From the NCBI GenBank assembly GCA_000004985.1, contig GG738880.1: 64,000 nt of DNA, one strand, 5' to 3'. Source of the DNA: Naegleria gruberi. Taxonomy: Eukaryota. The position numbers were made by a program, and so were the translations under genes. How positions within the stretch are numbered: the first letter of the stretch is position 1; every line of letters begins with the position of its first letter. This document shows, in pieces, positions 1-63,500 of this stretch. The notes below the pieces were generated by a model. That model was given only the letters and a program-made list of their open reading frames with translations. It was not told the origin of the DNA and did not search any database.

Positions 1-3000
1 AACACCATTAACATCAAGTCAAAGTTTTATTAGTAGTAATAGTAATACATTGGCATCTCCAATTGGTGGAAGTTATTCTGCTAGAGATTTAAACTCTGTT
101 ACATCAGCAACATCATCTGCTCGTAGTTCATTAGATAGACATCGTGGATCATTTGATAAGCGTCGTTCTAGAGATTTGACAATTACTACAAGTTTAACTC
201 CAAAGAAAATCAACTCACCAACTTCAAATTTTGATTCAAGTGTTTCTGAAAATTTTGGCACTCCAAACAATCACCAAACTTCAGATGCAACTCCAAATTC
301 TGCACCTCATATTTCATCTTCAGTTCCTACACAATCTCCTCTCACAAATTTCAGAACTACAACTGATATTTCTGATGATATTGTTACAAATGGAATTAAT
401 TCAAGAAAATCAAATCATAAGCGTGTATTAACAAATTTGGGTAGTCAAAAGAATCAATCAACTCCTGTGATGCTCGATGATGAAAGTACAGAAGATGATT
501 CTGACTCAGCAGCAATTTATTCTGCTGTTACCCCTGTAAAATTACAAGCAACTGTTGAAGAAAGGGAAGAAGAAGCCATTTCAAATTTAATTGTCAAGTA
601 TAGACTGGATCAATACAGTGATATTTACAAGGAAATGTTGGATAGAAATGATCCTCTAGTTCATAAAATAACTAGAAAGATTGAAATGAGAGATGATTGG
701 GATAATTCTTTCAAAAAGAGAAAGGAAACTATGCTTGTTCCGCTCACACGTGAAAAATCCTACTTGGAAGAAGTTCAATTGGAGAGAAGAGCCAATCCAT
801 TCAAGCCAAGTATTTATTATGATGAAGAGGTTGATGATGGATATACTGAAGGAACCTTGTTGCTTTCTCAATTCCATGAAGACAGTTCAAAATTGTTACC
901 TTACAATGTTTTGAGTACAATTCAAACCATGTCTTCTGATTTTATCATTGTTTCTTTCAAATCATTGGATACTAAAGTTAGAGATGTAGTTTTTAACGTT
1001 GATGATTTGAAACAAGTTAGTTATGAAATTGATATTCTTGATAGAAAGAAAATTGATGATAAAAGGAAGAAAGCACAAAAGAGTAATGAATCACCAACAG
1101 CTGCTGATGAATTGGACGTTTCTCTAGTTCTTCCAGGTAAGCAAAAATTACTTGCCATAGAAGGATTACAAGAACCAGAGTTCTTGTTGGCTACCTTTGA
1201 AGATGTTTTCCCATGTGAAGATCAACAAAAAGTAACTAATGACGATACCAAGTTATTATACTCTGATTTTGAATGGGAACCTTCACACATTGATCCAACA
1301 AGTCAATATCTTTTCGAATTGAAAGGTTTTGAATTGGATGTAAATAAGAAACTTGATATTCCTCTTGAGGAAGCATACTTTGTAACTGTTTCACTCTATA
1401 CTTATACTGATAAGGCATTTAAAAAGATATCAGAAGATGTAGAATTCAAGATTGAAACACATCCAAAAGAAGAAGATACTATCACCAAATTGAAAGCTAT
1501 GTTTTCTGTACAAAAGAATTTTGAATCCAAAGTTGTTGCCTTGTTTAAATTTTTTAGAAGATTCAAAGGTGAATTGACTGAAACTTTGAACGATTTGTAT
1601 ACTCAAAAAGCAGAAAAGGTAAAACAAGGTGATGTTAAAAAGTACTTTACAAAAAATGAAAAATTATGCACATTCCCTGGAGTTGCCAGTTCAATTTCAA
1701 TCTTTGGTTGGTCTGCAATTCATTTACAAGATTGTTTGAAGAGGTCAGAGGTTGTTTTAAGTGATAGTTTGTACATTCTCCCAAGAAAATGTAGAACAGG
1801 AGATGCTATTTTATTGGATAGTTATCTAGATGTTTATACTAATGCAGTTGAACGTGAATCAAAACCATTGATGAAAAAGACTATCTATGGTAAATTGTCA
1901 TTCATATTCAAAGAATTACCAAATATTCCTCCTATTCCTCGCCATTACCACCCAAATTCTCACGAGTTGGTTATTAAACTCGATTCCAAACATTTGAGAG
2001 TACAACAAATTCCAAACTTGGAAAATAGTTTATTGACTAAGATTTTACCATTATCTAGTGAACTTATTATTTATCCAAAGGAATTGAATTTAACAAAGAA
2101 AGATTTTAAGAATATCACAGTTAAAGTTTCATTCCTAAATGAGCAAAAGAAACCAATGAATGTATTTTATCCAAAGTTTTCCAGAAATCCTGAAAGAAAT
2201 TCTAGAGTTCCTTATAGATTTACATCTGTTTCTGTTGGTAATAGACAACCAGAATTTTGTGATGAGCTGAAGTGTATTTTACCATGCAGAATAACGAATT
2301 ATAGTTTACAATTTGAATTCTTAAACGTTCTCCATAAGGAAAATTTAATTTTGAAAAATCATCGTGAAGATGTCCAAAGAATTGGTTATGCCATTGTTCA
2401 TTTGGCTGAAGCTGCATTGAATGGAACCGAAATGAAGTTAGAAATTTACACAGAGAAAAAGGAAGCCAATGTTGTTAAAACTGAAAAAGTTGATGGTTAC
2501 TTTACATTCCAACTCTATTCAAGATCAATTGCATTCCCTACTGATAATAATTTAATGTCATTCTTTGATACTTTGGATTTATTCCAAAAGAGAAATTATT
2601 TCAAAAAGATGAGTAGAAAACGTGATTCTGATGATGACTTTTTCCTAATTTCTCCTGACCTTTCTCTTGTTTTACCAAATCTCAAATTGCTTGGAGTACA
2701 ACACATGGCCTTTGCTCCAGTTATTTTGAATCAACTTTTCCTATTGTATTTTGATATTGGTACAGATGATGAAGACACTCAACATGAAATATTTGTTGCA
2801 ATTATTGATATGATTGACAAGTATAGAACAGAACATCGTACAATAGTTCCTGGTTGGATTAAATTCCAATTTACAAGTGTTTTCCCTGATTATATGATGG
2901 AGAGATTGCCAACTATTGCCAAGTCTGTCAAGTACATTTTGGAAAGAGATGATTATGACAGTAAGATTATTAAGAATGCCAATTACTTATTCTCTATTTT

Positions 3001-6000
3001 ACTTAAAGCTATGGTTGTTCATATGGACTTTAGAAAGAACAAGATGCAAAACGCTGATCATGATTTTAGTGAAACTTTCTATGAAACTATTAACACAATT
3101 ACAACCAAGTCTTTTAGAAATTTATTGAAGAGAAATATTTCCAAGACTAGACCAGTTACTATTATCAATACTACAGTCATTTTTGCTCAGTTCTTAAAGG
3201 TTTTGCTTACAATTTTGGACAAACCTTATGTAATGAAACTAATTGCATCATTTGTAGAGTTAATTCCATTGATTACTCCAACCGAATCTGAAATGGGAAA
3301 GAATAAGAACACCATATTGGAATGTATTGCTAATTTGCAAGTAATCACTTACAAGGAAGTATTTTCCTACGATAATTATCTTCAATTATTTGTTCCAGAA
3401 TCTATTGAAAAAATTTTACAAAATGATAGTCTTCCACCATTGGATGATACCCACTTCTTATTCTCATCCTTTGTTGATACAGTAATCAAGAATTTGGTAA
3501 ATCCACTCAAGGAAACTAGAAATCATACTGCTCTAGTTTTTAGAGAATTCCTCTACAAGCTCATGTCTACCTCTAGGAATTCTACATTGGAAGAAATACC
3601 AGAAGCATCCGACAGAATCAACTTAATGACCTTTGAGTTTGTTGATAAATTCTTGGGCATTCTTCAAGATTGGAGATCTGAAGTTGAAAAGAGTGTAAAT
3701 TCCAATAAGAAAAAGATGAATGAATGTAAAAAGAGAAAGATTATGATTCAACAACAATTGGCTGCCAAGAAGGAATCTCAAAGAGCTGCTAGTGAAAGCT
3801 CCCTTGCTGGTATTCAATTGGAAATGTTGAACAAGGAAATTATTGTTTTGGAAACTAACTTTAAGCAATTCGAAGGAATGATCAACAAAACTAAAGAAGA
3901 ATTGAAGAAAGATATGAAGGAGTCATTCAAAGAAAAGAGACAATTGATAACTTGTGTTTTCCATATTTTGAAGAATACTGAACAAAGATATATCAAGAAA
4001 TGGTTGAAACAAATTAATATTACAAAGAGATTACAATTCTTGCAAATGATGCAATTAATTCTTCAATCATTTGAATATCAAAGTGAAGCATATTACAAGG
4101 TTTTCTATGAACATTATTACAATACTCAAGTGAAAGTCAAGAATAAGGTTAATGCTGATTTGTCTAGTAACAACTCAACTTCAACTGCCACTGTCTCTGC
4201 TAATGCCTCCTCTGCTTCTTCTCTTCTTAGCAATCCACAAGCACTTCAAGCATCTACCAATATTTCTTCCATCTCTCAAAGTAATGAAGCATTATCAACA
4301 GATACTCTTGCAGATATTGGTACCTATGTTGCAGGTGATATTGAAGAAATTACTTCTCCAAAAACAGCAACATCAGAACTTGTTAAAGCTGGTGCTTCAT
4401 TGATGAAGAAGAAGAATAAGCAAGGATTTTTCTCAAAGCTCATTCCTAACTTTGTTAGTTCAGATCAAAATCTCAAGACTGATATCAAAGAACTTAGAAC
4501 ATTATCAAAGGCAAGATTATTAGATTCTGCTGATAAGACAAAGTCTGTCAAATTGGAAACTAACTCATCTATCTATGTTAAGAAGTGTGTTAATATTGAA
4601 CAAAATTGGTCAAGAGAAGTCTCTAACTATGTTTTTGAATTATTAGTGTTCTGTATTGAGGAAATTATGACAGAAAAGACTGATCATCACTTGGATTCTG
4701 CAAGTATTTTGGAAAATGTTGTCAAGATTTTCCTTACCTTCTTACGTATTAATCAACCAGAAGATGTATTGATCAATGTTTTGATCTATTTGAAATGCTT
4801 CTTTGCTAATCATTACAAACAAGTATTTGACGAGGAAGCAAATGCTCAATATCCAACATTATTCTGTGAATGTTTAATGATGCACTGTAATTCATCTATT
4901 CCAGAGGTCAGAAGCCATGCTACTGCCTGTCTCTATCTTCTTATCAGATACATGTATATTATTAATTATAATACCATTTTGAAACCACAAGTTTTAACAA
5001 CACTTGCCCTTTCAAAGACCTTACAAAAATATGTTTCTCCAGTTGTTAACATTACTTATTTAAAGTCAGCAATTGATGCTATTGGAAGATATGCTTATTT
5101 GGACCCTGATCCACCAATTTCAGTTCAACAAACATTGAATAATCAAACAACTCAATCAACAGCTGCAACTGAAACAAAGACCTTGTCAACTCTTGATTCA
5201 TTCTTTAGAAAAATGGAACAAAGAGTTAAATTATTATCTGCTATCAAGGAAAGAAAGGAAGAATCAACATTTGCAGAAGAAGTCAATACTCAAGTTTGTA
5301 AAAAGTTGCAATCTTTATTACACGACACAACAAGTGTTAAATCAACTCTTGCCCTTGAAGATATTCACAAAACTGAAGATTTATTCTTGAGAATTTCACA
5401 AGTCTATACCAGAATTCCAGAGTTAAGATTTGTTTGGTTGAATCAATTGGCTGCTAATCATTACAAGAATGGTCAATATTTGGAAGCAAGTCAATGTTAT
5501 ATGACAATTTTATCACTTGTTTTTGATCATTTGAAATCTATTAATTCTCCAATTCTTGCTGGTATTTCAGTTCAATCATTCTTTGCCATTTCGCCACTCA
5601 AGAGAAAGACAAGCGCTGATAAGTTAACAAGTGCAAATCCTAACAATAGAAATGCAATGAATGATTGCTTTATTTCAAATCAAGCAGTTGAATTTACTGA
5701 ATATGGTATTATTCAATTATTATCCAAAGCTGTGGAATGCTTAGAATTAGCAGAATACTTTGAAAGTTGTATTGTTTTAGAAAGACTTTCACTTCCATTC
5801 TTAGAAAGATCTAATGATTGGATAAGACTTTCAAATGCCTATCATCATTTACAAGATTTATGTGATCGTTTGAAGAAACCAGATCGTTTAGAACCATACT
5901 ATTACAAGATTGAATTGGTGAACTTCCCACCAGAAAGATCTCAACCTAATCATATTTACAAAATGCCAAAACTTTTCAAATTATTCAAGATGAACAAGTG

Positions 6001-6934
6001 GGTTCAAGAAAAGTTTGGTTCTCCATTCGTAAATGAACAAATGGAAGTTGTAAGTGGTGCAAAGAAGGTTGATATCGATCCAAACAAACGTTACATCTTC
6101 TTGACTCCTGTTAAACCATTAACAAAGAGTGTCAAACCAATAATTATTGGAAATCAAAAGATTTCTAAATATGAAGGAAATATCAGAAAGTTCTATTATG
6201 AATCAGCTTATGGGAAAAAGACTGAAGTTGTAACTGAAGCTTACAAGAAGAAAGTTATTATTACATGTATGGATTATTTCCCTAACATGAAAACACGTCT
6301 CCAGATTGAATCTGAGGAGGAAGTCATCTTGACACCAATTGAAGCTGCCATTGAAAATATTGAATCTCAAATTTCCAAACTTAGAGAAGCTCTTCAAATC
6401 CCAGGAGACGATGAAATTGATATTTCACAAATCAAGACAGGTAATAATATTGACTTGGCAAATCTTCAACTTGTTTTACAAGGTTCTATCAAGGCAACAG
6501 TTCAAGGCGGTCCAGCAAGTATTGTTGAAGGTTTCCTCAAGATGGATCAACGTCCACTCTATGCAGTTGAGCACATTATTAACTTGAACAGAAAGTGTCA
6601 TGTATTTTTAAAGTTATGTGAAGAGGCTGTTAAGGTAGAAAATCAACTCATGGATAAGGCAACTGAAAGAGCTTTCCATCAAGAAATGGAAAAGGGTTTA
6701 ATCGAAACTCAGCAATTATTCGCAGAACATTTAACACCACTCGATGAAATGTTTTATTCACAATCTCAAAATTACAACAATTATTCGCCTGAAGATTCAG
6801 AAATGAATAGAGGAAGCGTTATTGGAGACATTCCAATGATTCGTAATTTTAGATTCTCAATGCCACAGCATGAACTAACACAATTAGGTATGAACTATGA
6901 AGAAGAATCAGATGATAGAGATTTCATTCAATAA
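1..6934 (+). CDS. DOCK-family Rho/Rac guanine-nucleotide exchange factor (DHR-1 C2-like and DHR-2 GEF domains); 5' partial, codon frame starts at nt 2
   Basis: Single 6.9-kb ORF open to the window start (the track's start at nt 50 is a TTG). DHR-2 lobe motifs are present: 'IPELRFVWLNQLAANHYKNGQYLEASQCYMTILSLVFDHL' matches the DOCK consensus 'ELRltWLenMAekH..g.wsEAAqCyvHvaALvaEyL', and 'ILTPIEAAIENIE' matches the DOCK 'SPIEnAIe' nucleotide-sensor helix. A DHR-1-like C2 pattern lies around 'NITVKVSFLNEQKKPMNVFYPKF…RQPEFCDELKCILP'. TAA stop at 6932..6934. Confidence 0.85.
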   Translation, partial: TPLTSSQSFISSNSNTLASPIGGSYSARDLNSVTSATSSARSSLDRHRGSFDKRRSRDLTITTSLTPKKINSPTSNFDSSVSENFGTPNNHQTSDATPNSAPHISSSVPTQSPLTNFRTTTDISDDIVTNGINSRKSNHKRVLTNLGSQKNQSTPVMLDDESTEDDSDSAAIYSAVTPVKLQATVEEREEEAISNLIVKYRLDQYSDIYKEMLDRNDPLVHKITRKIEMRDDWDNSFKKRKETMLVPLTREKSYLEEVQLERRANPFKPSIYYDEEVDDGYTEGTLLLSQFHEDSSKLLPYNVLSTIQTMSSDFIIVSFKSLDTKVRDVVFNVDDLKQVSYEIDILDRKKIDDKRKKAQKSNESPTAADELDVSLVLPGKQKLLAIEGLQEPEFLLATFEDVFPCEDQQKVTNDDTKLLYSDFEWEPSHIDPTSQYLFELKGFELDVNKKLDIPLEEAYFVTVSLYTYTDKAFKKISEDVEFKIETHPKEEDTITKLKAMFSVQKNFESKVVALFKFFRRFKGELTETLNDLYTQKAEKVKQGDVKKYFTKNEKLCTFPGVASSISIFGWSAIHLQDCLKRSEVVLSDSLYILPRKCRTGDAILLDSYLDVYTNAVERESKPLMKKTIYGKLSFIFKELPNIPPIPRHYHPNSHELVIKLDSKHLRVQQIPNLENSLLTKILPLSSELIIYPKELNLTKKDFKNITVKVSFLNEQKKPMNVFYPKFSRNPERNSRVPYRFTSVSVGNRQPEFCDELKCILPCRITNYSLQFEFLNVLHKENLILKNHREDVQRIGYAIVHLAEAALNGTEMKLEIYTEKKEANVVKTEKVDGYFTFQLYSRSIAFPTDNNLMSFFDTLDLFQKRNYFKKMSRKRDSDDDFFLISPDLSLVLPNLKLLGVQHMAFAPVILNQLFLLYFDIGTDDEDTQHEIFVAIIDMIDKYRTEHRTIVPGWIKFQFTSVFPDYMMERLPTIAKSVKYILERDDYDSKIIKNANYLFSILLKAMVVHMDFRKNKMQNADHDFSETFYETINTITTKSFRNLLKRNISKTRPVTIINTTVIFAQFLKVLLTILDKPYVMKLIASFVELIPLITPTESEMGKNKNTILECIANLQVITYKEVFSYDNYLQLFVPESIEKILQNDSLPPLDDTHFLFSSFVDTVIKNLVNPLKETRNHTALVFREFLYKLMSTSRNSTLEEIPEASDRINLMTFEFVDKFLGILQDWRSEVEKSVNSNKKKMNECKKRKIMIQQQLAAKKESQRAASESSLAGIQLEMLNKEIIVLETNFKQFEGMINKTKEELKKDMKESFKEKRQLITCVFHILKNTEQRYIKKWLKQINITKRLQFLQMMQLILQSFEYQSEAYYKVFYEHYYNTQVKVKNKVNADLSSNNSTSTATVSANASSASSLLSNPQALQASTNISSISQSNEALSTDTLADIGTYVAGDIEEITSPKTATSELVKAGASLMKKKNKQGFFSKLIPNFVSSDQNLKTDIKELRTLSKARLLDSADKTKSVKLETNSSIYVKKCVNIEQNWSREVSNYVFELLVFCIEEIMTEKTDHHLDSASILENVVKIFLTFLRINQPEDVLINVLIYLKCFFANHYKQVFDEEANAQYPTLFCECLMMHCNSSIPEVRSHATACLYLLIRYMYIINYNTILKPQVLTTLALSKTLQKYVSPVVNITYLKSAIDAIGRYAYLDPDPPISVQQTLNNQTTQSTAATETKTLSTLDSFFRKMEQRVKLLSAIKERKEESTFAEEVNTQVCKKLQSLLHDTTSVKSTLALEDIHKTEDLFLRISQVYTRIPELRFVWLNQLAANHYKNGQYLEASQCYMTILSLVFDHLKSINSPILAGISVQSFFAISPLKRKTSADKLTSANPNNRNAMNDCFISNQAVEFTEYGIIQLLSKAVECLELAEYFESCIVLERLSLPFLERSNDWIRLSNAYHHLQDLCDRLKKPDRLEPYYYKIELVNFPPERSQPNHIYKMPKLFKLFKMNKWVQEKFGSPFVNEQMEVVSGAKKVDIDPNKRYIFLTPVKPLTKSVKPIIIGNQKISKYEGNIRKFYYESAYGKKTEVVTEAYKKKVIITCMDYFPNMKTRLQIESEEEVILTPIEAAIENIESQISKLREALQIPGDDEIDISQIKTGNNIDLANLQLVLQGSIKATVQGGPASIVEGFLKMDQRPLYAVEHIINLNRKCHVFLKLCEEAVKVENQLMDKATERAFHQEMEKGLIETQQLFAEHLTPLDEMFYSQSQNYNNYSPEDSEMNRGSVIGDIPMIRNFRFSMPQHELTQLGMNYEEESDDRDFIQ

Positions 6935-7450: not shown

Positions 7451-7500
7451 NNNNNNNNNNNNNNNNNNNNNNNNNNNNNNNNNNNNNNNNNNNNNNNNNN
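7451..7500. other. assembly gap (50 N)
   Basis: Run of exactly 50 n characters. It interrupts the FTHFS reading frame. Confidence 0.97.
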
Positions 7501-44353: not shown

Positions 44354-46107
44354 AGTTAGCAAAACCAGTCTTAACAGCTTCAACGTCTGGTTGGGTAACA
44401 TTCTTCAATGCACATCCACCGTGGAATTTAAGAGCACGAATACTGGCAACAATGACAGCAACAGATGGCTTCAAACCAGAAATTCTGCACTTGATGTCAA
44501 AGAACTTTTCACCACCAATATCACCACCAAAACCAGCTTCAGTCAAAACAAAACCATCTTCACCAACAAGTCTCAAAGCAATATCATCAGCAATAATACC
44601 ATTTTGACCAGCAGCAATATTAGCAAATGGACCAGCATGAACAAAAACTGGAGTAGATTCAATAGTTTGCATCAAAGTTGGCTTAATGGTGTCCTTCATC
44701 AAGACAGCCATAGCACCAGCAACACCAACATCTTCAGCAGTAACTGCATTACCATCACGATCATAGGCAACAGTAATCTTACCAAATCTTTCTCTCATGT
44801 CTGTCAAATTCTTGGACAATGCCAAAACAGCCATACATTCAGAGGCAACAGCAATATCAAATTGAGTTTCTCTGGTTTGACCCTTTTCATTTGGACCTTG
44901 GCCAATAGTGATCTTTCTCAAATGTCTGTCGTTAATATCAACAACTCTGTTAATCTTAATAGTGGCTGGATCAATATTTAATCTGACGAGTTTTTCTCTT
45001 TCTTCTGGTGTTAATTTATCTGGATCTTCTCTTTCAGCAATACCTAATTTGGCCAATCTTTGGATCATGGATGGAACAAATTGTCTCTTTCCGTCCTTAC
45101 CAGCTGGACAAAGGTGATCAAAGAGTTGATCAGTCTTTTGATATGATTCATGGAAAACTCTAGTATCAACAGCAGCAGCCAACAAGTTATTGGCAGCAGC
45201 AATAGCGTGAATATCACCAGTCATGTGCAAATTGAATTCTTCCATAGGAACCTATTGTCAAATGATCATAAAATTTGAAAAAACAGTTCAATTATTGTGC
45301 ACTTACAATTTGTGAATAACCACCTCCAGCAGCACCACCCTTGATACCCTATAATTATTATTTGATTAATTATCATACTCCTCATTCAAAACTTACAAAA
45401 ACAGGTCCTTGTGATGGTTGTCTTAAACAAGAAACAACCTTTTTTCCGAGATGAGCACCCAAAGCTTGTGAGATACCCAAACAAGTTGTTGATTTACCTT
45501 CACCGAGAGGTGTTGGATTAATACCAGTAATCAAAACATAATTTCCCATTGGAGCATCTTGTCCTAAACGTTTAAGAATTTTCTTTCCATCAATCTTAGC
45601 CTTGTACTTTCCGTAAAATTCCAATTCTTCGTCAACATCAATGCCATAACGTGTGGCAATATCACCAATAAATTCAGGTTTACAATGTTGAGACACTTCA
45701 ATATCACTTGGGACAGGGACACGAATTTCACTCAATTTCTTACCAGTAATTGTTTCTTGTTGGGACATTTTTTTGTTGGTGTTGTTGTTGCAACCGGTTG
45801 AAGAACTGTAAGAGCGAAAAGAAGAGCCGGTTGAAGATGTTCTTGCTGATGATTCGCTACAATCAATAATATTAACATATTTGTGATGGGAAATTTGTTT
45901 GGCGCCAAAATTTAGGGAAGTATTCTTCTTCTTGTTGGTTGCAAGGCTTTTTGAGAAGCTTCTTCTTATCGATGATGATGAAGAGGTGGTTGAGCAAGTT
46001 GTTGATGATGCATTGTTCAATTGATGATTAGGAGTGTTACCGATGAGACGATCATGACACCAAAGTGATTGAATATTACACTTGGATTTTGTAATCTTAC
46101 GAAGCAT
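44354..46107 (-). CDS. formate--tetrahydrofolate ligase (monofunctional FTHFS), 5' portion in 3 exons, truncated by the gap on its 3' side: join(<44354..45251,45307..45348,45397..46107)
   Basis: Exon 1 encodes '…[49 protein letters not shown]…[46 protein letters not shown]' (FTHFS N-terminus with the P-loop 'TPLGEGKST'). Intron 45349..45396 is gtaagt…tatag. The 42-nt exon 2 encodes '[14 protein letters not shown]'. Intron 45252..45306 is gtaagt…caatag. Exon 3 encodes '[26 protein letters not shown]…' (the hallmark 'GDIHAI' motif). The ATG at 46107 is preceded by nothing in frame. The first 113 aa are an S/T/N-rich extension; an alternative start is 'MSQQ' at 45768. Confidence 0.85.
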
Positions 46108-46596: not shown

Positions 46597-47371
46597 TTAT
46601 TGGAATTTCTTCTTGGCATATTCCTCACCAAATAATTTACAAAGTACATTCATACATGGTCCATATTCTGCTTTCTGCATTAAATCCCACTCTACAGTAA
46701 ATAATACGAAATGTTTAAATAAAGTATTGATGTGAGCTGAGATACCTAAATTATTAATATATGATCCATGTCTATGATAAATGTGTGCAAAAACTCTAAA
46801 AAGTCTTGAAAATATTTTAACAACAGTTGGTTTGACTATTTTAGAAACGGATCATGATATTCTAAACAAATTATTCTAAACTAAACTTACATTTCTTTGG
46901 ATATGCTTTATCATCTTGTTGTGGAAATACTTTTGGATCATCCAATTTAGTATCAATCCATTCAGATAATAAATTAATATACAAAGGAGCCGAAACTGTT
47001 GTTGGTTGATGATATTGTACATTAGTTGATTCATCATCGAACCATCTATATTCATAACAATCTCCACCACTCATAGATGGACAATTTAATTCAGTACAAT
47101 CATGATTTAATTTCATACTATCAATTAGTAGGAATAAATTTTCATAAAATTCCAAAACGTGTTGAGCCAACCAATCCTTCTCATCAACTTGTGAAGGTAA
47201 TTTTACCAATTGTTCCAATTCTCTAATACTTGCTGAGAGTCCTGATATGATCACTGATTGTCTGTGATGATGGTGATGATGACCATTTGATGTACTTGTG
47301 GTTGGTGCTGTTGTTTGTTGCACTGTAAAAATTGATTGTTGTCTCTTTCGTTTGAAAAAGTTAGATAACAT
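46597..47371 (-). CDS. MOB kinase activator (Mob1/phocein family), 2 exons: join(46597..46835,46891..47371)
   Basis: Exon 1 encodes '…LPSQVDEKDWLAQHVLEFYENLFLLIDSMKLNHDCTELNCPSMSGGDCYEYRWFDDE…LYINLLSEWIDTKLDDPKVFPQQDDKAYPKK' (Mob1 core, Cys/His Zn-site pattern). It is phase 1 at 46891. Intron 46836..46890 is gtaagt…aaaatag. Exon 2 encodes 'FKPTVVKIFSRLFRVFAHIYHRHGSYINNLGISAHINTLFKHFVLFTVEWDLMQKAEYGPCMNVLCKLFGEEYAKKKFQ*', matching the Mob1 C-terminus 'RLFRVYAHIYH.HF…AHLNT.FKHF'. The N-terminus contains an H6 tract. Confidence 0.85.
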
Positions 47372-48021: not shown

Positions 48022-48420
48022 ATGGCATTAGAGAATGATTTCAAAGATAGTTGGACCTGCAAATGTGGAGCCCTCAATGGAAAACAAGATATTCGGACAG
48101 CAACGGATGGTAGAATTTATAGGATTTGTAATTCATGCAGTTGTACAATAGATGTGTGTATTCCTGCACATGATATAATCTCACATAGATATGTCAATAA
48201 ATGTTGTGGTTTACGACGTTCAATTCCCCGAACAGGCTGTAATTGTACTGCTTACCAACCTGTTAGAGGATTTGAATGTCGTTGTGGACATCATGGATCA
48301 ATTCATCGCATTGCTAGCATTCCTTATAAAACTGGTACAGTGAATACTAAAGTGAAGAAGAGTGAATTGAAAGACAGTGGATTATCTTTTGATATTAATT
48401 CTGTTGACGATCTCCAATAA
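48022..48420 (+). CDS. hypothetical Cys-rich protein (132 aa, 15 Cys; two 'CxCG' motifs)
   Basis: ATG-initiated ORF in good aaaaATGG context. It contains 'WTCKCGALNG' and 'FECRCGHHGSIH', a possible Zn-ribbon. No family recognised. Confidence 0.45.
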   Translation: MALENDFKDSWTCKCGALNGKQDIRTATDGRIYRICNSCSCTIDVCIPAHDIISHRYVNKCCGLRRSIPRTGCNCTAYQPVRGFECRCGHHGSIHRIASIPYKTGTVNTKVKKSELKDSGLSFDINSVDDLQ

Positions 48421-48504: not shown

Positions 48505-49320
48505 TCAATAGGATGGATTATTTGTAAAGACAATACTACTGTTTGTTGCTTGGAGAGTGGATGATGAATTTGGAACTGAATTATGTATTTGTTTTCTAGA
48601 GGAATTTCCTCCTCGAATTGAGGAAGGCATTTCAGAATAGGTGTGACCATCTGAGGGTGTTGCATCCAGAGCTATACTATATGGAGCTGCACTTGTTGTA
48701 GAGTTGGCCGTTAAATTAACACTTTGAATTGGCCTTTTTCTTTGATTATTTACAGAACTTGTTTGTTGTACATTTCGAATATTTGCATTATCTTTAGGTT
48801 CAATGCAAGGAGAAATTGGATTCTGTGAATCACCAATTGATGGATCATCCAAAAGAAGTGATAAAGGAGTTGCCAATACTTGTTGTGAAGAGAGAGTCAT
48901 GGATAGTTGTGGAGGTGGCATTTGCTGTTTTGGTTTTCCTCCAATCTGATGATTCATCTTATTTGATTTCTCAATTTGATGCATTCTATAAACATCTTGT
49001 TTCAATTTCTTTAATTTCTTTGCAAGTCTCATCTTTTGATTCGAAAGTTTTTCCAAAATGTGATGAATTGTTTTTTCCTTTAATTCCCATTGATTTAAAC
49101 TTGAATTATGATGGTGATGTTGTTGAATTAGAATTTGTTCTCTCTGTTGAAGAAGAGCAGAAAGGCCATGTTGTATTTGATGATAATGATGAGAAGTAGA
49201 ATCAAATGGTTGTTCCGATAGAGTTTGATAAGCAATCGGAGAAGAATTTAAATAATTATTATTATTGTGGCGATGATGATGGTGATTATGAAGAGTTTGA
49301 GGTTGATTATTACTATTCAT
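48505..49320 (-). CDS. hypothetical Q/H/N-rich low-complexity protein with a short basic/coiled segment (271 aa)
   Basis: The track ORF starts at a TTG; the first ATG is at 49320 ('MNSNNQPQTL…'). It contains H4 runs and 'KLSNQKMRLAKKLKKLKQDVYRMHQIEK'. No recognisable domain. Confidence 0.4.
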   Translation of the reverse strand: MNSNNQPQTLHNHHHHRHNNNNYLNSSPIAYQTLSEQPFDSTSHHYHQIQHGLSALLQQREQILIQQHHHHNSSLNQWELKEKTIHHILEKLSNQKMRLAKKLKKLKQDVYRMHQIEKSNKMNHQIGGKPKQQMPPPQLSMTLSSQQVLATPLSLLLDDPSIGDSQNPISPCIEPKDNANIRNVQQTSSVNNQRKRPIQSVNLTANSTTSAAPYSIALDATPSDGHTYSEMPSSIRGGNSSRKQIHNSVPNSSSTLQATNSSIVFTNNPSY

Positions 49321-49590
49321 CACAACAAGCAATTAAAAAGTTTTGTCTTTCTTTGTTGGACGTTAGTTCGAATGTTTGGTGGAATTTTTTTTGTATTGAA
49401 AATTAAATAATTTTTCAAAAAAGAAATTTCGAATTAATTTTCCAATAAACTCTACCTTACCATCAACTTAACGACACAAATGACAGATTTAATTCGGTCA
49501 TCAATAACGTCATCAACTATTTTTATAATTTCCAAGTTCAAAAAATTATCACCACACTGATCATCCCTTGTTTCATCATTAATTTCATTC

Positions 49591-50253
49591 ATGCTATTTT
49601 TCTTTGATTTTATCTATCACCAGGTTTATAAATTTCTCTATTCTGCCTTGGATTTGTTTCTTCCCCAGAAGAAATTTCAGCTTTTGTCATTTGAAACTAC
49701 TTCTAAAACTTATTCTGAACTGATGCAATGTATGCAGTTGGCCTTCCAAAAAGATGACTTTCGCACATTAGATAATCAAAGAGATCAGATACTCAATGAT
49801 ACTGGGTATGGTGTTGAGTTTAAGAATTTTTTTCTGAGCTATGTACAGATTTCTTCTTATTACTATTCAACGGATGATTTATACAGATATAGTATGAAGG
49901 GATGTGCTGCATTTATTGTAGTTATGGATTCTAATACAGGTTATGGATTGAGTACTAGTACATATAGTAGTGTTACAGTAAAAGAGTTAATTGAACTTTC
50001 ATCGGTGGATGATTCTCAATATTCAGAAAAGAAACCTAAAGTTTACTTGAAGAAAAATCATAGACCAATGCTATTCATTCTACGAGGTACAGATAAGGCA
50101 ATGATTAAAAAAGCAGAAGAAGAAATAGAAAAAGGAATTTCTGAATGCCAATACGAAAGGGATAAATATTATATTGCCTATCATGATTCAACTTTGGAGA
50201 AGGAAACTATTTATGAAGGAATGGAATGGATATTATCCAAACAATCTTCTTAA
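49591..50253 (+). CDS. hypothetical protein with a degenerate Ras-superfamily small-GTPase fold (pseudo-GTPase)
   Basis: Positional matches to the G-box layout are present, but the motifs are degraded. 'KFQLLSFETTSKTYSEL' sits where G1 'KIVLLGDSGVGKSSL' would be. 'GYGVEFKNF' sits at the switch I/β2 position. 'YYYSTDDLYRYSMKGCAAFIVVMD' sits where 'WDTAGQERF…GA.G.ILVYD' would be. 'RPMLFILRGTDK' sits where 'P.ILVGNKxDL' would be. 'YYIAYHDSTLEKETIYEGMEWILSKQ' sits at the 'ETSAK…F..L' position. Confidence 0.45.
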   Translation: MLFFFDFIYHQVYKFLYSALDLFLPQKKFQLLSFETTSKTYSELMQCMQLAFQKDDFRTLDNQRDQILNDTGYGVEFKNFFLSYVQISSYYYSTDDLYRYSMKGCAAFIVVMDSNTGYGLSTSTYSSVTVKELIELSSVDDSQYSEKKPKVYLKKNHRPMLFILRGTDKAMIKKAEEEIEKGISECQYERDKYYIAYHDSTLEKETIYEGMEWILSKQSS

Positions 50254-50411: not shown

Positions 50412-50780
50412 TTAAGTTTTAATACTTCCTTCGTTTGGAATTTCATAGAAATATTTATACAAAACTCCAACACCTGGAATTCCAAGCAATGCAAGCATTA
50501 TCATTTCTCCAACACTCAAATGCTTCTTTATCATAAAAAGATTTTGTTTAGCAAGTCGGAACAAGGCTAAAAAACTGCCATCATCCACAACCTTTTTTCT
50601 TTCTGCTCTTTGTCTGGCATCTTCGGAAGTAGAAACAGGTGCTGGTGTTGTTGTTGTTTCCTTCTTTGATTCTGAGTATTCTCTTCTTACAGAAGTGACA
50701 ATATTCGAACGAATGGAAATATTTGATGATGAGAAAGATTTTAAACCTTGGGAGGCTTTTTTGATTTGGCGTGCAAGCAT
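50412..50780 (-). CDS. hypothetical small protein with a mitochondrial-presequence-like N-terminus and one C-terminal TM helix (122 aa)
   Basis: First ATG at 50780 ('MLARQIKKASQGLKSFSSS…': basic/hydroxylated, no acidic residues). The C-terminal hydrophobic segment 'MIMLALLGIPGVGVLYKYFY' carries a GxGxG-like motif. The track ORF start at 50822 is a TTG. Confidence 0.4.
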   Translation of the reverse strand: MLARQIKKASQGLKSFSSSNISIRSNIVTSVRREYSESKKETTTTPAPVSTSEDARQRAERKKVVDDGSFLALFRLAKQNLFMIKKHLSVGEMIMLALLGIPGVGVLYKYFYEIPNEGSIKT

Positions 50781-50946
50781 TTTTTTCTTATTTGAAAATT
50801 TCCATATTGAGTTTAAACTCAATAATAATTGGCTAAGAAGATAACATGTTTACAATTTTAATATTATCAGTTTACTCAATTACAATAAATATTTTGTAAT
50901 GAATAATGAATGGTAACACTTGTAATAAAATTCAACGACAAAAAAA

Positions 50947-57556: not shown

Positions 57557-60500
57557 TTATTTTGAAAACAATTTGGCCTGTGAGAGTAGTTCTGTACTTA
57601 ATTGAATGATATTGTTGCACTTTAATCCACAAGTTTCAAAATTGATAATGTCAGACGTATCTTGCTTTAAAGAGTTAGCTAAAAGAACCCATCCGCTCAA
57701 TCTCTTATAAAACAAGTCTACAACAGATTCATCCAAGCGTAGTATTGGAGTTGGGGCTTCTTTTGCTTGCTCTCCATCTTTTGGCTTAATATTCGTAAGA
57801 ATGGAGGCTGAGGATACTGTTTCCTCAGATGCTAATCTTCTTTTTGTGAGCTGTCTTTCTAATTTGAAATTTCGTTTCAAAAGCTCAAATAGATATCTGT
57901 CTGCTTTTAAGGTTTCATTGATATTGGAGGGTTTCTCATTTCTCATAGAATTGTCTTCCAAGAAAACTACTTTCTTTTTAGAGCTTGTTGGATAGTTCAA
58001 ATAACAACCTGTTTTGATTATTTTTCTAGATAGGCTCATCACTACTTGAATGTTAAACGGTGTAAGGAGAATATTCAAACATTTCTCAAATTCACTTTCG
58101 AATAATGAGAGCAAATTTAAATTGTGTAATAAATTTTGCAAATCTAAATCCAATCTGAAAGGAGAGCAATAATCTTTACGAGTGGCATGCACAAAAGCAC
58201 ATGCCATATTATCAAACAAAACTCTTCCTTTTTCCATATCAAATATAATAGAATCATCCCTAACATTGCCCAATCCAATAAACCAACTAATAGCAGACCA
58301 TTTAGCAAGGTCTCTAACAACCCTTTCACACATGTCGTACCAGGAATTTTTGTAAATGTGATATTTCGTTATTAAGACAGTGTTTTTCTTCTTGGTTTCC
58401 ACATCATAGGACATGAGTGAATAGTGTTGGGATGCGTGCTGAGAAAAATATTGGAATAATACAGTTTCTGGCTTTTTGAGAGAAAAATTGAGTGATTTCA
58501 AAGACTGTAAATCCACAAATGAAGAGTTTGATTGTTTTCTAATTACTTTGAAATAATTTCCTCCCATCTTCATAATTGGTATCATTTCCAACTGTTCCAT
58601 CCCAATAAAATTCCCAATTGCATTCGAGGTTAACATTTCCAAATTTGAGGCATCCATGGTTGGAATGGGAGAAAGTGTAATGGCGAGACTTTCTTTTGAG
58701 GTTTCCTGATCAAAATCTCTATCAATTTGAATTCGCATCTCCCACAAATTATTGTTATTTTCATATGAAAATTTGGAAATTTCGATCGAGTTAACAAATT
58801 GCATCCATTTAAAACCAGTATCCTTTGCTGTTGATTTTCCAATATATTTAAACAGTTCCAATAATGAATTAAAGAATTCTTCTTTGTTAACTGAGGATTC
58901 CAAATTATTATGTAGCACATTATTGATCACTGATAAGGAAGCTTGAATCATTTTAAATTTGTGGTCATCACAATATTCCATAAATTTTCTGAACATTTCC
59001 AAGTTGCAAAATCTAAGAAAGTCCAAAACAAAGTTAATATTTTCCAGAGATGAATACTTTTGAATCGATTTGTAAGAGTTCTTAAAGAGAAATAATGATA
59101 CTAATCGGTTCAATTCTTCTCCATTGAATGTCTCAATAATGAAGGAGAAAATTTTAGCCCATCCCGTACAGAATGTAACACTTTCAAGCATGTCTTTGTC
59201 AATAAATCTGTATTCTATAAGATATGACAGTATATTGATGCAATGTTTTAGCTCTGTTACTGTCATTGAATTCTTACAATCTATTAATTTTGAAATATTC
59301 TCCAAAAAATCAAATATTAATAAATGTACACAATAGAAAACCGATGGCTTTTGTGTTTCTAAATCTGGTTGATAAGTAAATGATCCAAAATTGGAAGGGC
59401 ATAGGTTAGTGCATGTTTGGGAGAGAATTTCTTCCATTGTGAAATTTCTATTTGAATACTTATTGTTGGAAACTACAGATGAGAATAGGATGATTACAGA
59501 TTCTAGTGTTATAGTTCTTAAACAAAAGGAAATATTTTCAGGTAGTTCTATTTTAGAAGAGAGTAGCGCATAACCTATTCTCCAATCTAGCATTCCATTG
59601 TCTTGTGAAATCTTCCTAAGACCAAAGGTATCCTCATTTTTGATTGGATTATCTGTATTGGTAATGAATTCAACAAACTCTTTCCAATCTACCTTTTTTG
59701 ATTTTCGTATTGTAGTCTTTGATTGAAGTAAGAGCTGCTTTCTGACAAAATCGAATACTTTTGTGGAATCTCTTTCAAGAGAAGCATAGCAATCAGATAA
59801 CATTGAACAAAAAAGATTCAAAAACTCTCCACATGTTTTGAGTTCGATTTTGTTCAATCTGAATTTCAAAGATTCATCCTTAATTGACCATTCATGTAGA
59901 ATGAAATTTAAATTAATGGATATATCTTCAATATTACTAGTTTGTTCACAAATGATTTGAATTCTTTCATGAATAACAGCATCACTCGAAGTATCATTAA
60001 ATATATAGAAAATACATTTCCAAAATAGAGAATTTTTCTTTCCATGTATAAATTTAGAATCAAATTCTTCACTTATTACTATTTGTATAGGTTCCTCTGT
60101 TGTTTGTTTGTTTGTTTCTAGATTCATTTCTTCAACTGTTTCTACAAGTGGCTCTGTATTTCTATCAATAAAATCTTGGGCTAAGTCTAATAAACTATGG
60201 CGATTCAAATACCATTCAGAAGAATCCACAGTATGAATTGAAGAGTCAGATTGTGAAAGTTTCATAATATGAAGAAGGATAAGATGTGACTCAACAACAG
60301 GCTCCTTATATCTACTTGTAATTGATTCTACTGTTTTAACATAATCAATGATGGTATTTGTAGACAAATTCTCAATAGAACTAAAAATGTTTCTACTAGA
60401 ATTATTGGATTCGGGGTTCATTCCCTGCAATATATCAAAGAAGGGAGTCTTTTGATCTCTCCTACTCAGTTCGTATTGAATCCATTGTAAACAGGTGGAA

Positions 60501-63500
60501 GAGATCTTATCTTTGAGTACCAACTCTATTACTTTGATTTTTTCTGTTGTTAAAAGCTTGTTCTCAGTAAGCATCTTCTTGATAATATTCTCATAGGTGG
60601 TGGTGTTAATTTGTCGAGCAAAGTTGGCCAAATCTGATACAGTGTTCATTTCTTTCGAGTTGAGGAATGAAACATCTCCTTTCTTTAGAGTTTCCACTAG
60701 TTGGTAGTTGATTTTTTGTTCAGAATTCATTGAGTCAGAGTACGACTTGAGGAATAACTCGAAATTCTTCTTTTTCTCATCCTCTCTTATAGATCTATCC
60801 AATAGATTCTTTGCAAACAAGTAGGGAATAACATCAGGATACTCATTGGAAATTTTCTGAATGAAACTATCATTGGAATTAGTTAAAGATATGTATGATC
60901 CCAATATTTCACAAATATTTTCCTTATACAACCCTTTCAAATAATTCAAATAGGGCCAAAGATTATTAAAACCCATCTTGAACTCCTCAATCAATGAGGA
61001 ATATTCAATATTTGCATTGGATCTATTAAACTTGTTTAGAGTAACTCTTAATTTGAATAAATCAAACTCTGATAGCAGCTGTCTGGTCTCAATCGATTTG
61101 GCTTGCATTTTGATAATACTCAAATCTAGTTTCGATAAATATGATTCAAGATTATCGTTTAGGCCTATAAGAAAAGCAATTTTACATAGAGGATATAGCG
61201 TGTCAATTCTTGCAAATCTTGTAGAACCCATATTATTAGAAATTATCAGTGCTTGCTTTTTCATATTATTGGTGAGTAAATAAATTATTATCCATTGCCA
61301 ACAAGAAGTTTGAAACTTGGGATCAATTTCTTTAAGTGCTTGTTGTGCCTTTTCATAGAATTGAGTTTGATAGTATTGACTAGAGGGTGATCGTAAACTG
61401 AACTTCAATTCAAATATGATTGTCTTTGGTTTTTTCATGTAATCAGCACTTATACTGTGAATTGGATTCAGTGTTGAGAAGTAGCTCTCATTTGAAATGT
61501 AAGATATGTTTGCCTTAAGAAAGTGAATTGAAGATTTGTAGTTTTCCAAATTGAATATTTGGGCATGTTCAATCATGTTTGTTTTAAGCCAGTCTGGAAT
61601 ATTCTCAACAATTTTCTCAAGCTTTTCAAGCTCAGTTCTTGATTTTTCTATATCAAAATGATTGACATAGTATTTGGTTCCTAGTTTTAGTTTTTTGAGT
61701 TGAAATTCAATTGTGATTGGATTGAAATCTCTGTATACACTCGAAAAATTAGAGTCATCCAAAATATAGAATGTCTTTAACCGTAGATAGACGTATTCGT
61801 AATTCTTTGGGCTAGATCTTTGTAGATTTGATAATATTTGAAGAGCTTGCCTTGAAGATATGGTACTCTTCTTTTTGTAAAGAATTTTGGCTTGCAATAA
61901 CTGAAACTCTGGCGAAAGTTCACTAATATTTGAAACCTTAGGTATGTATTGTGATGCATTATTATAATCTTCAATGTTGTAATGATAAAGTGCTTTTTCA
62001 AAATCCACAGCAGATAAATTTCCACTTCCTTTATATCAAAAATTAATTAATTCGATAGATGAACTACACTTACTTGTTGCTTCGACCAAGCTTGTTTCAA
62101 TATATTTCCTAAGTTTTGAATTTGTTTTCAATGCACATTTCCCCATTCTATTGTAAGCATAAACTTGCATATAGTACGAAGAGTCATCCCTTTTAGTGAC
62201 CTCATCAAAAATCCACTTTGAATAGTCTAATAATTTCCAAGGACTTCCAGCACTTGCCAATGATATATAGTACCAGAAAAAAGTTGAGGAATCTTTACCT
62301 CCTGGCTTTTTGCCAATCATTACATGTCTGTCATAGAATAACTGCATCAAGATGAGTGATGTTTTGGCACATCCAAGTTTTGTTAAGTAGAACCACAATA
62401 GACGTAATGTTTGTGGATATTGAGAGCAAATGCTTTGGATTGTATAGTTATTGTAAATATCTTGAGTAAAGATAATTGGATCAATATTGAAAGAAGTTAA
62501 CAAGTATGAAAGAGCTCCCTCTATATCACCATTATAGTACTTCAATAGAGAAACATTATTACAAGCAGATTTTTCAATTTCAACAGATCTAAAACCAAGT
62601 GGTAATTGATTAAATCCAAACTGAAGTTTGGTACTATTTAGAAATCGTTCAAAAATAGTCGAGTTTGCATTGAATTGATTGGAATCGTCCTGAGATAAAA
62701 GCGAATCCAATAAGTTTTTCTTATATTCCAAACTTGCTAAACAATCACTCCCTGAAAATAATTCCAAAGCTTTTGTAATTACATTTTGTGCCAACTCATA
62801 ATTCCCTGTTTCCCAATAAATATCCACAATATTTTCAATTGATATTATTTGATATGGTGCTAATTCTAATCCCTTCATAAAAAATTCAATAGATTGCTTA
62901 TATAAACATCTATCTTTAAAAATAATTCCAAATAAATGATAAATTGATGGATTATTTGGATCTCTCTGTTTCATTTCATCCAAAATATGTATTGCCTCTG
63001 AATCCCAGCCCATATTATGTTTGATTAGTGCCAATGTTAATAAATAGGCAGTGTTATTTGGTTCACACTTTTTTGCTTTATAGCAACATTGAATGGCCTC
63101 TTCGTATTCCTCATGAATCATGTAAATTTCAGATAATGCTATCCAAGCATCAAAACTCGAATCTGTTTGTTTAATTATATTCAAGAAATATCCCTCAGCC
63201 CTATCTATATCATTTAATATCCTCAAATATCTTATTCCATTGTTTTTTATATTGAATTTCTCAATAAAAATACTTACAAATATCCTAAATTCAATAGTGG
63301 ATTAATTATTAAATGTTCATTTCTAATTTGTTGACTTTTTTGAAGGGAATATGTAAATGATTCGATGGATTTTTCAATTTCACCTCTATGTAATTGTAAG
63401 ACTCCAATATTATTAGTTACAAGAATATCCTCTTTTAGTAGTTCCTTTTTTCTCCCTATTAATTCTTTTGATTTTGCAAAACTGTCAAACGAAGATTGTA

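Follow-up and report, generated by a model that had tools for sequence, protein, structure and literature searches.

CENP-M and the dynein light intermediate chain are class-i pseudoGTPases, proteins that combine a GTPase fold with degraded guanine-nucleotide (G) motifs and a presumed nucleotide-independent interaction role. Members of this class neither bind nor hydrolyze nucleotides (definition as quoted in PMC12722892), and the proteins assigned to it also include RhoBTB1/2, the N-terminal domain of AAGAB/Irc6p and the pseudoGTPase domains of p190RhoGAP (PMC12722892; PMC12490416). AAGAB has been shown to act as a protein-interaction module (PMC12490416). The closest precedent for the protein described here is ArlEM, an extremely divergent member of the Arf family and putative class-i pseudoGTPase found in Eumicrosporea only (PMC13393502). 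We consider a complete, single-exon open reading frame (ORF) lying on the plus strand, at positions 49591..50253, of a 64,000-nucleotide stretch of Naegleria gruberi DNA (contig GG738880.1 of assembly GCA_000004985.1; hereafter, the window). This ORF has the extent proposed in the initial annotation, 220 codons plus a stop codon, and its product, P0001, is 100% identical to the N. gruberi hypothetical protein NAEGRDRAFT_80422 (homologue search with the single protein). The reading that we favor, with a probability of about 75%, is that this is a functional single-exon gene belonging to a fast-evolving, Arf-derived family restricted to Naegleria, which has lost the five guanine-nucleotide motifs and serves as a nucleotide-independent protein-interaction module.

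Taken alone, P0001 has no Pfam or NCBIfam match and, with phmmer, no relevant PDB match at E ≤ 10, two matches to OhrR (E of about 0.2) being noise; a word-indexed homologue search returned the protein itself only. An exhaustive phmmer search of 1.84 billion representative sequences yielded two real relatives (E = 3.9e-9 and 1.5e-5), together with a 613-amino acid repeat protein (P0003) rejected as a spurious low-complexity match. Profile searches then led to a family of six: P0001, a second N. gruberi paralogue (P0002), FDP41_001921 from N. fowleri (P0004), C9374_009312 and C9374_013981 from N. lovaniensis (P0005 and P0006), and a protein from one ENA assembly (P0007). A further homologue search at E ≤ 10 with the six-sequence profile added no members, and a scan of JGI metagenomes detected no further relatives. 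So far as these searches show, the family is seen only in Naegleria, including the pathogen N. fowleri.

The parentage of the family emerges from profile comparisons. The six-sequence profile had 59 matches at E ≤ 10 among all PDB sequences, every one of them to an Arf-family protein (Arf1, Arf3, Arf4, Arf5, Arf6, Arl1, Arl3, Arl6 and Asgard Arfs), and the best of these matches (E = 3.4e-6) paired profile positions 72–198 with Arf1 residues 55–173. With hhalign, the family was matched to human ARF1 with a probability of 95.6% (E = 1.2e-8) and to an alignment of eleven Arf-core proteins with a probability of 95.1%; the corresponding values for SAR1A (1.5%) and KRAS (1.2%) were not significant. 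In a panel of 27 sequences, most of which come from the supplement to Vargova et al. (2021), the highest bit scores belonged to Arf1 and Arf6 (25.4 bits for ARF1), with Sar1 at −1.7 to 2.9 bits and KRAS at 3.4 bits (the human ARF1, ARF6, SAR1A and KRAS sequences used were entered by hand). The homology is collinear over about 125 residues, from β2 to α5, the Arf-specific strings VE[FY]KN and LYEGL[DE]WL are both present, and all of the Arf sequence signal lies within residues 74–220. These comparisons place the family among the descendants of an Arf-type small GTPase, not of Ras, Rab or Roc. The initial annotation had proposed a GTPase-derived scaffold to be searched against the Ras, Rab and Roc families; the GTPase descent stands, with Arf as the parent instead, and the profile search gave significant matches, all of them within the Arf family, and none for KRAS or SAR1A. 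No Rab or Roc chain was found among the 59 PDB matches, Rab and Roc sequences not having been compared directly.

The predicted structure is consistent with this assignment. AlphaFold2 (AF2), supplied with the six family sequences only, produced a model of canonical GTPase topology, with a predicted local distance difference test (pLDDT) score of 69 and a predicted template modelling (pTM) score of 0.71; the single-sequence model (pLDDT 47) was too poor for use. The elements are predicted to follow one another as in a small GTPase, an order already recognized in the initial annotation: αN, β1, α1, a disordered switch I region, β2, β3, α2, β4, α3, β5, α4, β6 and α5, with the protein ending four residues past α5. 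A small-GTPase fold preceded by an extra N-terminal amphipathic helix, as predicted here, is a feature of the ARF family. Of the outcomes named as refuting in the initial annotation, a lack of family matches and a structure prediction without the P-loop NTPase fold were both looked for, and neither was obtained. A flavodoxin-like α/β protein that merely resembles a GTPase would be a scarcely credible explanation for these results, given that the Arf profile homology is significant, collinear over some 125 residues and inclusive of family-specific strings, and that all Foldseek matches to the model at E < 1e-3 are GTPases.

The segments of the protein, all on the plus strand, can be divided according to their conservation. 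The N-terminal helix predicted by AF2 (residues 2–23, LFFFDFIYHQVYKFLYSALDLF; 49594..49659) is amphipathic, rich in aromatic residues and devoid of Gly2, and is joined to β1 by an LPQ linker (49660..49668) in which P25 and Q26 are invariant and cross-clade identity is 77%. The interswitch β2–β3 hairpin, GVEFKNFFLSYV (residues 74–85; 49810..49845), aligns with TVEYKNISFTVW in Arf1, with E76, N79 and F80 invariant and an identity of 46%. The equivalent of the switch II helix, TDDLYRYSMKG (residues 94–104; 49870..49902), corresponds to I74–N84 in Arf1, with an identity of 48% and with Y98 (W78 in Arf1) and G104 invariant. Strand β5, RPMLFIL (residues 158–164; 50062..50082), has an identity of 59%, with P159, L161 and F162 invariant, and the C-terminal helix α5, ETIYEGMEWILS (residues 205–216; 50203..50238), which bears the Arf signature LYEGLDWL, is better conserved than any other long segment in these proteins (63%). 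The other residues invariant in the family are Y17, D21, E43, Y73, Y91, E189, Y208, E209, G210, E212 and W213. Between α3 and β5 lies an insertion (residues 137–157, SSVDDSQYSEKKPKVYLKKNH; 49999..50061) shared with the N. gruberi paralogue in part only.

The nucleotide-binding loops present the opposite picture. The equivalent of G1, or the P-loop, is SFETTSKT (residues 33–40; 49687..49710), at the junction of β1 (residues 27–33) and α1 (residues 39–51) in the AF2 model, where GLDAAGKT of Arf1 aligns with S33-F-E-T-T-S-K-T40, such that both glycines of GxxxxGKT are replaced by serine. At the switch I position (residues 52–73; 49744..49809), the family is rich in indels and predicted to be disordered (pLDDT below 50 for residues 54–72), and the region of the switch I (G2) threonine is deleted or unalignable. 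In place of DVGGQ of Arf1 (G3), the protein has QISSYY (residues 86–91; 49846..49863), the aligned residues being Q86 and S88-S-Y-Y91, with no DxxG. RGTD (residues 165–168; 50083..50094) stands for NKQD of Arf1 (G4), of which the Asp alone is retained, and DSTLEK (residues 199–204; 50185..50202) for TCATSG (G5). GxxxxGK[S/T], DxxG and the Asn-Lys of NKxD are absent from all six family members, the other five of which have P-loops that are lengthened by insertions and lack the Lys. The G1 and G4 segments are those named in the initial annotation; its G3, STDDLY (residues 93–98), is displaced by seven residues and aligns with K73–W78 of Arf1, in switch II, and its G5, AYH (residues 196–198), is displaced by three and falls at the end of β6, opposite I155–A157 of Arf1. 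Once these two positions are corrected, its broader claim that all the G motifs are degraded still holds, with G1, G3 and G4 kept by none of the six members and these loops evolving the fastest.

Cross-clade identity is 17% for G1, 27% for G3, 23% for G4 and 15% for G5, with a value of 10% for α4, and the pattern of conservation across segments is thus the reverse of that expected for a working GTPase. A canonical P-loop concealed in a neighboring exon, a possibility raised in the initial annotation, was also sought: the Walker A motif [AG]xxxxGK[ST] occurs in none of the six frames from 46.5 to 53.5 kb, an interval that extends some 3 kb beyond the ORF in each direction, so there is no hidden P-loop exon. 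Moreover, given its collinearity with a complete Arf, from αN to α5, the ORF requires no further exon.

Relative to Arf proteins of the Arf1/Arf6 type (PF00025), the family retains the collinear β2–α5 region with its VE[FY]KN hairpin, the L-[WY] pair of switch II, β5 and the α5 signature, together with an N-terminal amphipathic helix, a single-domain organization and a similar size. It differs in the loss of G1 to G5, in an unalignable switch I predicted to be disordered, in the absence of Gly2 and, for P0001, in a 21-residue insertion before β5 and in a failure to reach any Pfam threshold. Of the parts of Arf proteins concerned in the nucleotide-driven interswitch toggle, by which the N-terminal helix is released, the interswitch, αN and α5 are conserved. 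With G1 to G5 lost and switch I unalignable, the protein would nevertheless not be expected to work as an Arf-type nucleotide switch.

All six members begin with a predicted amphipathic, aromatic-rich helix. Its hydrophobic moment is between 0.43 and 0.55 in all six members (0.43 in P0001), and its mean hydrophobicity is between 0.82 and 0.88 in five of them (0.86 in P0001) and 0.55 in P0002. The helix of Sar1 has similar values (moment of 0.39–0.47, mean hydrophobicity of 0.88–0.94), and the family helix is more hydrophobic than that of Arf1. All six N-terminal helices are free of Cys, and all six proteins lack Gly2, so that none can be N-myristoylated. Sar1 likewise has a non-myristoylated, aromatic-rich amphipathic helix of similar hydrophobicity and moment, but its G motifs are intact and there is no significant profile similarity to the family, and an origin from Sar1, raised by the N-terminus, was rejected on profile scores. 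More generally, descent of the family from some other part of the superfamily (Sar1/SarB, SR-beta, Ras, Rab or Roc), with a misleading likeness to Arf, is quite improbable. The N-terminus without Gly2, aromatic and hydrophobic like the Sar1 helix, would fit such an origin, residues 1–40 are 28% identical to residues 1–39 of SAR1A by BLASTP, and, when folds alone are compared, the scores of Rag, EF-Tu, Sar1 and Rab are similar to that of Arf; but the N-terminal likeness to Sar1 falls short of significance (E = 0.079 in a single pairwise comparison, with no signal from an N-terminal profile), the PDB profile matches are confined to the Arf family and led by Arf1, SAR1A and KRAS reach about 1% in hhalign against 95.6% for ARF1 and about 0–3 bits against 25, and the strings VE[FY]KN and LYEGL[DE]WL are specific to Arf.

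Among described proteins, ArlEM shares with the Naegleria family a restriction to one lineage, strong divergence, mutated G motifs, a parent paralogue that is unresolved and a clade-wide conservation implying a retained role (PMC13393502). ArlEM, compared here by description and not by sequence, differs in having lipidation sites, an N-terminal Cys and/or Gly2; the Naegleria proteins have neither, and bear a Sar1-like hydrophobic helix instead. The identity of the family with ArlEM was therefore rejected, no member having Gly2 or an N-terminal Cys and the host being a heterolobosean. As the hosts belong to Heterolobosea in one case and to Microsporidia in the other, an independent origin is likely. 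Arl17 was also discarded, since the domain of about 100 residues that follows its GTPase domain is missing here and Arl17 has been reported to be absent from Discoba. The class-i pseudoGTPases named above resemble the family in their GTPase fold, degraded G motifs and presumed nucleotide-independent interaction role, but they belong to other branches of the GTPases and several are domains of larger proteins; the Naegleria family is, for its part, a putative member of the class. No kinship with AAGAB is proposed, as no Pfam family, including those of the AAGAB type, matched P0001 at E ≤ 10, and AAGAB serves as a mechanistic analogue only.

The most comprehensive census of the ARF family, published in 2021, includes 36 manually curated proteins from N. 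gruberi (Vargova et al., 2021; PMC8358228). Both P0001 and P0002 are missing from the N. gruberi entries of its supplementary dataset 1, all entries considered, and the family corresponds to none of the ancestral ARF paralogues already identified in this species. Several of the Arf proteins listed for N. gruberi in the census are multidomain, with a long extension at the N-terminus (NgrArf1c, NgrArf1j, NgrArf1k, NgrArf1l and ArlX2), and BTB-Arf combinations have been reported within the ARF family (Vargova et al., 2021; PMC8358228). Two of its entries also have G motifs that look damaged: NgrArlX1 has FDCNIMSH for DxxGQ and SSKVD for NKxD, and in NgrArfrp1 an NKxD is not evident. Further candidate Arf-family pseudoGTPases may therefore exist in N. 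gruberi; neither NgrArlX1 (0.7 bits) nor NgrArfrp1 (2.6 bits) is specifically related to the pseudo-Arf family.

The relatives of P0001 in other species provide information about selection. Two pairs of orthologues can be recognized, P0004/P0005 (75% identity) and P0006/P0007 (72%), and these pairs occupy two conserved loci, one with a gene for an EF-G-like protein on one side and a gene for an RCC1-repeat protein on the other, and the second between genes for a thioredoxin and a BTB_2 protein. One pseudo-Arf paralogue is situated about 100–150 bp upstream of a BTB_2-domain gene, on the same strand, both in N. lovaniensis and on the ENA contig (L003 8001–10939 and L002 5131–7468). The ratio of nonsynonymous to synonymous substitution rates (dN/dS; Nei-Gojobori method) is 0.24 for P0004/P0005 and 0.22 for P0006/P0007, indicating purifying selection on a fast-evolving protein. 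P0001 itself is merely 28–32% identical to every other member.

Analyses of the ORF itself also argue that it is a gene. In a eukaryotic window with a G+C content of about 31%, a frame that stays open for 220 codons would arise by chance with a probability of about 3e-8, given the local base composition, and a codon-usage model built from six of the window's other genes gives the ORF frame +0.21 bits/codon, as opposed to −0.42 and −0.62 for the other two frames and with values of +0.20 to +0.46 for neighboring genes. The neighbors of P0001 encode Mob1, two unknown ORFs, NDUFV2, BRE and Ulp1, and the window displays no synteny with the family loci of N. fowleri or N. lovaniensis. Exact-sequence look-ups of P0001 and P0002 in a contig collection gave no record. 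In the library of papers that was searched, none contains the locus tags.

Several observations weigh against the interpretation of the ORF as a functional gene for an Arf-derived class-i pseudoGTPase. Residues 1–52 have no similarity to any Arf in an N-terminal profile, which leaves collinearity and the predicted structure as the basis for the assignment of G1. The Pfam threshold for Arf (PF00025) is not reached, with no match for P0001 at E ≤ 10 and a match for one of the six members at E = 0.017. The AF2 model is moderately confident, with pLDDT values of 31–68 over the first 80 residues, and its TM-scores to Arf structures are only 0.5–0.66. The view that P0001 most likely neither binds nor hydrolyzes GTP, as a class-i pseudoGTPase, derives from motif loss, and P0001 retains Lys39-Thr40 at the start of α1, the two residues being found in this member alone, and Asp168 of NKxD. 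No close orthologue of P0001 was found, and dS is saturated in comparisons with the other members, so selection is seen in the orthologue pairs and not on P0001 itself. The status of the ORF as a functional gene is argued from its sequence. Finally, the elements of the interpretation concerning membrane association and the interaction surface are derived from conservation and from the structures of Arf proteins.

Two other explanations draw on these observations. In the first, P0001 would be an atypical Arf-like protein that still binds a nucleotide or phosphate, as a class-ii or class-iii pseudoGTPase or a non-canonical binder. Because Lys39-Thr40 and Asp168 are retained, weak or atypical binding is conceivable; the length of the P-loop is also preserved, and some ARLs have very low or unusual nucleotide affinities that are still debated (PMC12722892). 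This explanation nevertheless appears distinctly unlikely to us, as both P-loop glycines are serines, DxxG and the Asn and Lys of NKxD are gone and no threonine of switch I can be aligned; the other five members keep none of these positions, and conservation is lowest in the G loops, from which it follows that selection is not acting on the nucleotide site. In the second, P0001 would be a decaying or non-functional remnant, either a pseudogene or a spurious gene model. The loss of all catalytic motifs, the sole annotation as a hypothetical protein and the lack of a close orthologue, of synteny with the family loci in N. fowleri and N. lovaniensis and of expression support would all fit with decay, but the frame is intact over 220 codons, beyond chance at 31% GC, and gene-like in its codon usage, three species share conserved motifs away from the nucleotide site, and the orthologue pairs have dN/dS values of about 0.22–0.24. 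We consider a remnant of this kind very improbable.

The present analyses show an Arf-derived fold, the loss of the motifs and selection on surfaces away from the nucleotide site; the mechanism is inferred. If P0001 no longer uses GTP, as we favor, it would probably work as a constitutive protein-interaction module independent of nucleotide, in the manner of AAGAB. In structures of GDP-bound Arf, αN, the β2–β3 hairpin (lambda-3) and α5 are adjacent and surround the N-terminal helix pocket. The likely functional surface of the Naegleria protein would be the patch formed by these three elements together with the Tyr-rich switch II helix. The Sar1-like, non-lipidated helix could mediate constitutive membrane association or be docked permanently onto the core; either way, the membrane switch of Arf would be frozen in a single state, and the protein would be controlled by its abundance, by modification or by its partners rather than by GTP. 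A bolder proposal, which we regard as rather unlikely, is that the membrane-switch hardware (αN, interswitch, switch II helix and α5) is under selection across the genus in this family, and that release of the helix and binding to a membrane or partner are toggled by a cue other than GTP, making the family an independently evolved, natural nucleotide-free Arf switch, or a decoy, acting on the Arf machinery of Naegleria, that of the pathogen N. fowleri included. Such a cue could be, for example, a partner protein or the modification of switch II, with its many Tyr residues.

The rest of the window is dominated by a scaffold gap, a run of 35.6 kb of N at 8723–44353 that accounts for more than half of its length, and the ORFs listed across this gap are artefacts; a second run of N covers 50 bases (7451–7500). 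On the plus strand, an ORF of 2294 codons (50..6934) encodes lobe A and lobe C domains of DHR-2, identifying a guanine-nucleotide exchange factor for Rho/Rac of the DOCK family. Beside the gap, on the minus strand, an ORF at 45382..46107 covers only positions 2–102 of the 556-position profile for formate-tetrahydrofolate ligase, and another at 46871..47371 matches positions 8–111 of the 170 of Mob1/phocein; in both cases the gene is probably broken up, either by introns or by the gap. Just upstream of the pseudo-Arf ORF, the plus strand carries an ORF for a Cys/His-rich product of 132 amino acids (48022..48420) with no Pfam or PDB match and neutral codon usage (−0.007 bits/codon), which may be a small zinc-binding protein or no gene at all. 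The pseudo-Arf ORF is flanked on the minus strand by ORFs for a low-complexity protein of 275 amino acids rich in His, Gln and Asn (48505..49332) and for a protein of 136 amino acids with a hydrophobic C-terminal segment (50412..50822), neither with a Pfam match and both with gene-like codon usage. Further downstream, also on the minus strand, an ORF of 1483 codons (57557..62008) has gene-like codon usage and no Pfam family at E ≤ 1e-3.

These results provide a family assignment for a hypothetical protein that standard annotation with Pfam and NCBIfam cannot place. Pseudoenzymes are common, and pseudoGTPases, including a precedent in the Arf family, are already known, so the general significance of the finding is modest. 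The Naegleria family is a second and apparently independent case, after ArlEM, of an Arf-family protein without its nucleotide site that is still under purifying selection. Its conservation can be read as a natural experiment, in which the surfaces of Arf that would be useful without GTP are the interswitch, the switch II helix and α5.
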